This document shows positions 4,324 to 5,685 of a stretch of 64,000 bases of DNA, piece after piece; the first letter of the stretch is position 1; every line of letters starts with the position of its first letter. Under the pieces are notes generated by a model. It saw nothing but the letters and a program-made list of their open reading frames with translations. It did no database searches and was not told where the DNA came from. This stretch comes from a virus. The translations under genes were made by a program, and so were the position numbers. The DNA lies in the IMG/VR virus record IMGVR_UViG_3300042197_001007; one strand, given 5' to 3'.

Positions 4324-4352
4324 AGTTTAGCATCAAAAAGGGGCACCGTCAA
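4324..4352 (-). promoter_or_regulatory. Host-type sigma70 promoter for the Sm-like trio, gp43 and uvsX
   Basis: TTGACG-17 nt-TAAACT with TG extended -10. Confidence 0.8.
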
Positions 4353-4359
4353 GTGCCCC
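4335..4359 (-). terminator. Intrinsic terminator after hsp20
   Basis: GGGGCAC-ttgacg-GTGCCCC followed by TTTTT. Confidence 0.8.
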
Positions 4360-4365
4360 GAATAT

Positions 4366-4770
4366 TTAGAACCACTTCTTTCTCTTTTGTTTCTCCGGAA
4401 GTTCTTTTCTCAACACAATTGTTAAAAGACCATCTTTAAAATCTACACTCTCAACTTCTACATCTTCCGCCATTTGCCAATTACGAGTAAATGACCTTTG
4501 AGAAATTCCCTTATGCTGATACTTGCGTTCTTTTTCTTCCTTTGATTTTTGAGCAGATACTGTTAGAACATGTCGTTCAGTTGCGACCTCAATATCTTCT
4601 TTTGTAAATCCTGCCAAAGCGACCTCAAGTATGGTTCTGCCATCATCTCCGTTAACCACGTTGTACAGAGGATAACTATATCCATTTCCCGCAATAGCTT
4701 CAAGTCTTCTGAATGTTTCATCTAATCCAATAGAATGTGGTGTATATGTTTCCCAATTAAATGTTACCAT
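4366..4770 (-). CDS. hsp20: Small heat shock protein (alpha-crystallin domain)
   Basis: YPLYNVV...LEVALAGF...HKGISQRSFTRNW...DGLLTIVL; AGGA Shine-Dalgarno upstream. Confidence 0.96.
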   Translation of the reverse strand: MVTFNWETYTPHSIGLDETFRRLEAIAGNGYSYPLYNVVNGDDGRTILEVALAGFTKEDIEVATERHVLTVSAQKSKEEKERKYQHKGISQRSFTRNWQMAEDVEVESVDFKDGLLTIVLRKELPEKQKRKKWF

Positions 4771-4816
4771 TGTCCTAAAAAAGCGACGTTTACATGTGAC
4801 CCGTTAGGCATCACAT
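4771..4816 (-). promoter_or_regulatory. Two-hairpin 5' leader of hsp20, ROSE-like RNA thermometer candidate
   Basis: Hairpin 1 ATGTGAT(G)CC-TAAC-GGGTCACAT. Hairpin 2 GTC(G)CT-TTTTT-AGGAC sequesters the SD and has a bulged G in a UCGCU motif. Confidence 0.6.
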
Positions 4817-4837
4817 TAATAATTATATACCAAACAT

Positions 4838-4865
4838 AAAAAATGGGGATCGTAAAAACCCCCAT
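4838..4865 (-). terminator. Intrinsic terminator after regA
   Basis: ATGGGGgtt-tttac-gatCCCCAT followed by a T run. Confidence 0.7.
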
Positions 4866-4877
4866 GAATACTACGGT

Positions 4878-5303
4878 TTATTCGCCAACTACCTTTTTTC
4901 TGCCAATATTATATTTGCTTTCCAAAGTCCATTCATCCTTTTCCTTGAAAGCAAGCACTTTAATTTGATTAAGAGGAGCTAGATCACTAATTTTTTCTGG
5001 TGTAACCACAGTAACCAATCCCCAATCGCTAAGCAACTGGATAATACGATTACGACGTTGAAGATCATTCAAAGAAAAGTTTGTGTTTTTTCCATCAAGG
5101 GCAAACAACTCTTTAAAATGAACAATATAATACTTACCTTGCTTATGAAGAATATGGCAAGATTGATAAATTTTCTTTTCTTTGCGTGAAGCAACACCAA
5201 TCCTGGTTAAAGTTTCTCGTACCTTTAGAAAATCATCAGGTTCTCCAAGAAGTACTTCAACCATGTCTGATTGTTTCCACTGGATTTCAGTTTCTGCGGT
5301 CAT
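4878..5303 (-). CDS. regA: Translational repressor RegA
   Basis: DFLKVRETLTRIG...YQSCHILHKQGKYYIVHFKELF is the RegA signature. ATG at 5303 chosen over the upstream GTG. Confidence 0.97.
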   Translation of the reverse strand: MTAETEIQWKQSDMVEVLLGEPDDFLKVRETLTRIGVASRKEKKIYQSCHILHKQGKYYIVHFKELFALDGKNTNFSLNDLQRRNRIIQLLSDWGLVTVVTPEKISDLAPLNQIKVLAFKEKDEWTLESKYNIGRKKVVGE

Positions 5304-5685
5304 TCTTTCCACCTTTATCTAACACTTTTTTAATATGATCTAACTGATCCTTTGTGAGAACCCTAAGTGCCTGTAGAGCTTTATCGTCATTATAACCATA
5401 ATACTCTTTGACTACATCAAGATAATCAATCGAATCTTTTTTTGCCCAGGGAGAAAATCTCTTTCTAGGTTTGAGACTATTTAGTAAGAAATCATACTGA
5501 AGTTTCTTTGGCAGATGAGAGTTCTTATTCATCTCATTCGCAAACAGTATAGTGTCAGTAAAGGAACTAAGGCAGCGATTAATAATATATGGTGGATATG
5601 CTTTCTCAGCATCAATATCATCTTCAAGAATGTTTTTCTTGGATTGATTGATGCTGTAAAGATAATCCTTCAGTTGATATGTCAT
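5287..5685 (-). CDS. gp62: Clamp loader small subunit
   Basis: YPPYIINRCLS...KPRKRFSPWAKK...EYYGY; upstream of regA. Confidence 0.93.
   Translation of the reverse strand: MTYQLKDYLYSINQSKKNILEDDIDAEKAYPPYIINRCLSSFTDTILFANEMNKNSHLPKKLQYDFLLNSLKPRKRFSPWAKKDSIDYLDVVKEYYGYNDDKALQALRVLTKDQLDHIKKVLDKGGKNDRRN

Follow-up and report, generated by a model that had tools for sequence, protein, structure and literature searches.

We find that the short leader in front of hsp20 in a 64,000-nucleotide (nt) viral sequence (IMG/VR record IMGVR_UViG_3300042197_001007; the whole stretch is referred to here as the window) is, judging by its sequence and predicted fold, a viral member of the ROSE-like family of RNA elements, and we consider it likely that this leader is a ROSE-type thermometer that would set Hsp20 output at the level of translation. 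The window belongs to a T4-like cyanomyovirus whose closest named relative is S-RSM4 (79% nucleotide identity over the hsp20 stretch), and the leader occupies positions 4816–4772 of the minus strand, in agreement with the coordinates and strand that an initial annotation, made from the letters alone, had assigned to it. The same leader lies before an hsp20 gene in phages from many genera that infect Prochlorococcus and Synechococcus, as well as in Pelagibacter phage HTVC008M, Methylophilales phage Melnitz and the Pseudomonas jumbo phage PA5oct.

Folding with RNAfold gave the same two hairpins that had been claimed from the sequence. Hairpin 1 (4794–4816, minus strand) consists of seven pairs running from A4816-U4794 to U4810·G4800, followed by the bulged G4809, the CC/GG pairs C4808-G4801 and C4807-G4802, and a UAAC tetraloop (−8.3 kcal/mol, z −2.4). 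After a single-stranded linker, GUAAAC (4788–4793, minus strand), comes hairpin 2 (4772–4787, minus strand; −3.1 kcal/mol, z −2.6), in which an anti-Shine-Dalgarno (anti-SD) strand, GUCGCU (4787–4782), folds back across a UUUUU loop onto the SD-like box AGGAC (4776–4772) through the pairs G4787-C4772, U4786-A4773, C4785-G4774, C4783-G4775 and U4782-A4776, leaving G4784 bulged. The stem ends 2 nt before the hsp20 AUG, which stays outside it, and both hairpins hold a similar bulged-G module (YGCY opposite RGG). The single sequence carries little of the argument: the stability of the entire leader is not unusual relative to shuffled versions (z −0.5 to −0.7), and the pattern U(U/C)GCU-N2-9-AGGA matches 13 times in the window (4 + 9) against about 7.4 expected (1.95 + 5.45), the hsp20 copy being the sole one that abuts a start codon. 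The motif in this one sequence is within chance, and it is the comparative data that give it weight. Two further local structures were seen, namely a mini-hairpin in which the start codon can pair (AAUG-GUAA-CAUU, 4760–4771, minus strand) and a fold of the U run with a downstream UUGGGAA that the energy model favours below ~15 °C; both are clade-specific and probably not meaningful.

For the comparison, hsp20 loci were gathered from IMG/VR with three protein queries, from named phage records, from prokaryote genomes and with a pattern that describes only the RNA (individual loci are cited by L numbers where needed). MAFFT misaligned the 3′ arms of the diverse leaders, and an alignment fitted to a covariance model (A6) was used instead. 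The anti-SD/SD template was matched by 190 of the 197 phage loci, which reduce to 111 distinct leaders, and both hairpins are kept in all 111 (from cyanophages, pelagiphages, a Methylophilales phage and PA5oct). In the alignments, 96% of paired cells (42 close leaders) and 95% (49 broader leaders) can pair, vs. 27–58% when the partners are slid, and pairs with changes on both sides number four and seven, respectively. Covariation across phage hsp20 leaders, which the initial annotation had proposed as a check, is thus present, being strong in hairpin 1 and limited to few events in hairpin 2.

In hairpin 1, compensatory changes fall in three to four pairs: the pair beside U·G is A-U in 59 of the 111 distinct leaders, U-A in 48 and G-C in 1, and the next pair outward is G-C in 87, A-U in 17, C-G in 3 and U-A in 1. 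No change is seen in the bulged G or in CC/GG, while any tetraloop can form the loop. In hairpin 2, every cell of the helix is paired in A6. Its closing pair is G-C in 42 leaders, C-G in 63 and U·G in 5, so that GUCGCU/AGGAC is the form of the window's clade and CUCGCU/AGGAG that of most cyanophages; the inner pairs scarcely vary (pair 2, U-A in 110; pair 3, C-G in 100 and U·G in 11; pair 4, C-G in 111; pair 5, U-A in 107). The arms are fixed, whereas the loop between them is variable (3–8 nt) and A/U-rich; the linkers are A/C-rich and 6–11 nt long in most relatives. It does weigh against a thermometer that the covariation of hairpin 2, as read from these alignments, rests on few independent events and mostly divides clades. 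At 25 °C, hairpin 2 appears in the unconstrained minimum free energy (MFE) fold of 87 of 109 leaders (at least four of its five pairs), and hairpin 1 in 107 of 109.

The seven phage loci off the template carry CUGUCU, in which a G can still bulge; this anti-SD, in place of CU(C/U)GCU, is seen in pelagiphage-like contigs (L192–L199). With the preceding G as the bulge, it can still form pairs with AGGAG, an arrangement that shifts the bulge and keeps the hairpin.

The same pattern of fixed and free positions bears on a published reading of this DNA. A stretch upstream of the S-PM2d hsp20, ATTCAAACTCGCTTAAATA, has been given as a putative Pho box (PMC10976474), which would make the conserved sequence a DNA site for the host PhoB. 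In terms of the leader, it comprises the linker and the anti-SD strand; variation is unrestricted in the A/T loop that would carry the TTAA core, the GC-containing arms stay fixed, and hairpin 1 covaries in the manner of an RNA. The S-PM2d fragment showed no PhoB binding in a gel shift, and low phosphate drew no response from the gene (PMC10976474). We give a Pho box practically no credence, as the published negative gel shift contradicts it; the RNA leader accounts for the conserved sequence formerly taken for one.

The leader is also tied to a single gene. With a model made from the window's clade, a single copy is detected in the window at 86 bits, and the runner-up reaches 9 bits. When viral contigs were scanned with the RNA-only pattern, independently of protein, 120 stretches were returned, of which 113 could be evaluated, and hsp20 follows the leader in 113/113, directly in 101 and after a small open reading frame (ORF) of 61–98 amino acids (aa) in 12. 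Chance is ruled out by the conservation together with this exclusive link to hsp20. The 12 contigs with the small ORF (L307, L308, L318, L327, L336, L338, L341, L369, L370, L384, L408 and L416) have the conserved hsp20 motif 335–448 nt past the leader; in L308 (9561-9785), which was the only such locus to be read completely, the ORF is followed by hsp20 after 10 nt. Searches of Pfam and PHROGs gave no match for the small ORF between leader and hsp20, and these contigs seem to have a two-gene operon under the leader.

Three records outside the usual phage setting were also noted. A cyanophage-type hsp20 with the full leader occurs in a 188 kb contig of Nonlabens xiamenensis (L210, NZ_RMVE01000006.1; E = 1.6e-17 with R2, a model built from cyanophage leaders only) and in a Euryarchaeota metagenome-assembled genome, TMED129 (L211; R2 E = 8.5e-13), both of which are probably phage contigs within cellular assemblies. 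Conversely, a record labelled ‘UNVERIFIED: Campylobacter phage A18a’ (L091, MG065686.1) contains the ibpA locus of E. coli, ROSE leader included, at 100% identity to E. coli chromosomes, and this is probably host or contaminant DNA.

We also weighed whether the element could be an operator for the phage translational repressor RegA, whose gene lies directly upstream of hsp20 in the window. RegA of T4 binds A/U-rich initiation regions. The element is, however, equally conserved where hsp20 is not beside regA (P-SSM4, S-SM1, P-RSM1 and ACG-2014d) and before cellular ibpA-like genes, at loci where no regA was seen, and its conserved bases are the G/C-containing arms rather than the A/U stretch. 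Since the element persists both without an adjacent regA and in front of cellular ibpA-like genes, a RegA operator is very improbable.

What, then, does the leader resemble? Among 4227 Rfam families, ROSE_3 (RF02523) gave the best minus-strand match, at exactly 4817–4765 (16.9 bits), and it also ranked first among Rfam families at the corresponding place in S-SM2 (24.9 bits), ME01 (24.6 bits) and P-RSM1 (21.8 bits). The alignments to ROSE_3 share the GAU-G-CC...GG-GUC of hairpin I, ACUCGCU and AGGAG. A search with the Rfam ROSE models, as suggested in the initial annotation, returned a ROSE family at this exact position, with a score in the window of 16.9 bits vs. the gathering score of 43. 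That no phage leader scored (16.9–24.9 bits) reached this threshold, and that one leader (L051) searched alone against Rfam gave no ROSE match, are points against the assignment. Under the stricter filters of an Rfam scan of 20 whole loci (64 kb), the weak ROSE matches were lost. A divergent alpha-proteobacterial ROSE-like leader (Sneathiella, L283) likewise scores 40.4 bits against a threshold of 45, and the ROSE models are therefore narrow.

The ROSE-like architecture that had been proposed is borne out by the features of the leader itself: it lies in an ibpA/hsp20-class gene's 5′ untranslated region (UTR), has two hairpins with the SD-like box in the last, carries U(U/C)GCU with a bulged G and shows covariation. 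The ROSE-like thermometer of Pseudomonas ibpA has two hairpins, of which hairpin I is heat-stable and G-C-rich (Krajewski et al., 2013, PMC3669281), while hairpin II, which contains U(U/C)GCU, melts on heating and is locked in the closed state once the bulged G is removed (PMC3669281). The phage leader shares with it the two 5′ UTR hairpins, the GAU-G(bulge)-CC...GG-GUC of hairpin I, the short single-stranded linker, the pairing of U(U/C)GCU with the SD in hairpin II with one G bulged, and an AUG outside the stem. It differs from ROSE_3 in that its hairpin II has five to six pairs vs. ~8 in the model, in that the SD-like box of the window's clade is AGGAC at 2 nt from the AUG, and in being carried by viruses of cyanobacteria, SAR11 and OM43. 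Classical ROSE (RF00435) has the same anti-SD with a bulged G and the same succession of stem, unpaired G, CC, tetraloop and GG in hairpin I, but its hairpins number three to four, and its last stem is longer and extends its pairing to the AUG region. The E. coli ibpA leader (ROSE_2, RF01832) has the CUCGCU...AGGAG pairing before an IbpA-type gene and differs in its upstream hairpins, as R2 does not match it and its MFE fold lacks a hairpin with a bulged G and CC.

To our knowledge, the hsp17-type thermometers of cyanobacteria, the host phylum, are without the U(U/C)GCU bulged-G motif. Those of Synechocystis resemble the phage leader in controlling translation of a small heat-shock gene, a property that on the phage side is predicted, and are described, as cited in the Pseudomonas study, as a single short hairpin (PMC3669281). 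The phage element is of the proteobacterial and not the cyanobacterial type.

Cellular genomes were searched as well. R2 finds three leaders of ibpA-like genes in marine Alphaproteobacteria (E = 1e-6 to 3e-8), and in the one such genome searched whole, the ibpA-like leader is the only significant match. Among genomes with the YPPYN peptide pattern, the closest cellular homologues are from SAR11 and other marine Alphaproteobacteria, and these genes have two- or three-hairpin leaders of the same kind; a ROSE_3 search of a class-level sample of 151 genomes, from a marine gamma-proteobacterial start, gave no match over the cut-off. We think that hsp20 and its leader probably entered the marine T4-like phages together from a proteobacterial ibpA, so that the gene would have moved with its regulatory RNA into phages whose hosts' own small heat-shock thermometers differ in type.

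If the leader is a thermometer, the mechanism would most nearly match that of the short two-hairpin ibpA thermometer of Pseudomonas. The mRNA would begin at the foot of hairpin 1, a stable and predicted temperature-insensitive structure that likely guides folding and shields the 5′ end. The marginally stable hairpin 2, in which the U(C/U)GCU strand with its bulged G pairs the AGGA(C/G) ribosome-binding sequence before the AUG, would when closed largely exclude the 30S subunit, and warming would shift the equilibrium toward the open form and so raise Hsp20 synthesis, as in ROSE-type thermometers. Masking of the ribosome-binding site itself has good support; we infer this occlusion at low temperature and opening with heat from modelled energies. 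At 25 °C, the median free energy of hairpin 2 is −2.7 kcal/mol, becoming −6.7 kcal/mol with the bulged G removed; being marginal with the bulge and much tighter without it, the hairpin has the balance expected of a melting switch.

Several observations weigh against a heat switch. The predicted opening with temperature is modest: according to the energy model, the four AGGA bases are all free with a probability of 0.004 at 15 °C and 0.026 at 37 °C, a rise of about 6-fold, and at 15 °C and below an alternative fold involving the coding region shows up. The AGGA of the window's clade stands 2 nt from the AUG, too short a spacing for a normal SD, and here the initial annotation held in part: AGGA does pair with UCGCU around an unpaired G (G4784), but its role as a canonical SD is doubtful. 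Masking of the start region is therefore a safer description than masking of an SD, and hairpin 2 may block the start region as such. An SD core is found in only 12 of the 47 window genes, and translation in this system may therefore depend little on the SD at all. Ocean temperature also changes slowly, so that the ecological benefit of sensing heat is not obvious.

These reservations bring in a simpler possibility, a fixed device for setting expression in which the 5′ stem-loop would stabilise the mRNA and the weak hairpin would damp translation constantly, with no sensing. Translation is lowered by any hairpin that covers a ribosome-binding site, the predicted temperature change is modest, as noted, and hairpin 1, placed at the very 5′ end, would suit the part that 5′ stem-loops play in transcript stability, which is discussed for Pseudomonas (PMC3669281). 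Yet what has been selected is a bulged, marginal hairpin rather than a weaker binding site or a tighter stem, and in proteobacteria the same design has been proven to sense temperature (PMC3669281). We judge a device of this fixed kind unlikely.

The protein raises an alternative that we take more seriously. The best NCBIfam match of the window's Hsp20 is IbpA (6e-23), and it is 32% identical to E. coli IbpA over the full length. IbpA of E. coli and of other gamma-proteobacteria represses its own translation through the ROSE-type 5′ UTR, and this self-repression depends on Arg93, on a positively charged residue at 97 and on an aromatic one at 34 (PMC10474464). The equivalent residues of the window's Hsp20 are R, R and Y, and in 133 distinct phage Hsp20 proteins the Arg93 equivalent is kept in 115 and replaced by Lys in 18, a positive residue stands at position 97 in 130, and an aromatic one at position 34 in 129. 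Most phage proteins thus keep the Arg that E. coli IbpA needs for mRNA binding. On this evidence, the leader could be mainly a self-repression operator, with Hsp20 oligomers binding the 5′ UTR and blocking translation until titrated off by unfolded or assembling proteins, the signal being client load during infection rather than temperature. Retention of the Arg93 equivalent in the window and in the 115 phage proteins makes self-repression plausible, and the YGCY/RGG module in both hairpins is in keeping with it. On the other hand, the 18 proteins with Lys, which is inactive in E. coli, include many from the window's clade, yet both hairpins are unchanged there; the leader is therefore not maintained for self-repression alone. 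We consider an operator acting mainly in this way a genuine possibility, though not one that we would expect to prevail.

Self-repression is compatible with a thermometer, by analogy with IbpA, rather than exclusive of it, and may act on top of it. We tentatively raise, and regard as doubtful, a dual sensor in which heat would open hairpin 2 and Hsp20 would bind both bulged-G modules of its own mRNA, to be titrated off by unfolded or assembling proteins.

ROSE-type thermometers are known from proteobacterial chromosomes, and full-text literature searches turned up no report of one in a virus and no paper tying RNA thermometers or ROSE to cyanophage hsp20, in agreement with the annotation's remark that it knew of no such description. 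The hsp20 gene belongs to the core set of the T4-like cyanophages, which are very abundant. A working thermometer would mean that phages of cyanobacteria, SAR11 and OM43 adjust a chaperone to temperature or folding stress without a transcription factor, and it would bear on how infection yield responds to ocean warming. Were the dual sensor to hold, chaperone supply would follow the temperature of the sea as well as the protein-folding load during infection, and since nearly all sampled T4-like cyanophages and pelagiphages carry the leader, temperature-dependent control would be widespread in ocean virus-host dynamics. The leader is short and readily testable with reporter fusions.

The surroundings of the leader define a self-contained transcription unit on the minus strand, where genes run from the clamp-loader genes through regA and hsp20 onward to DNA polymerase. 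Downstream of regA (4878–5312; PF01818, E = 1.6e-43), the terminator scan and the sequence gave an intrinsic terminator (4836–4865) with a 9-bp stem (4865–4843) and a U run. It is followed by a −10-like box, TATATAAT (4829–4822, with TATAAT at 4827–4822), the ~46-nt leader, the hsp20 coding sequence (4366–4770, AUG at 4770–4768; an IbpA-like small heat-shock protein of 134 aa; PF00011, E = 1e-15) and a second intrinsic terminator from the same scan (4340–4359), 6 nt past the stop codon. Because terminators follow both regA and hsp20, the latter forms a separate transcription unit. In 98 of 109 related leaders, a TAAATA or TATAAT-type box is found 0–6 nt before the hairpin 1 core, 55 of these 98 having TAAATA (the T4 late-promoter type) where the window has TATAAT. 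With a −10-type box at so short and fixed a distance, the transcript probably starts at the foot of hairpin 1, which in the window would put the hsp20 start at ~4817–4814.

A few loci depart from this layout. In seven (L086, from S-CAM1, L051, L055, L064, L113, L145 and L172), a third, extra G/C-rich hairpin and CCCUU..ACGCCA lie 5′ of hairpin 1, and in these three-hairpin variants the −10 box is further upstream. One leader (L017:1437-1506) has an unrelated hairpin in place of hairpin 1, with UUGCU as anti-SD. In L004:1450-1506, the regA frame runs into the 3′ half of hairpin 1, and the terminator, promoter and 5′ arm are missing, which reflects either a deletion or an assembly join. Finally, at L068:1312-1383, a tRNA gene (56.6 bits) is located ~70 nt upstream of the hsp20 leader.
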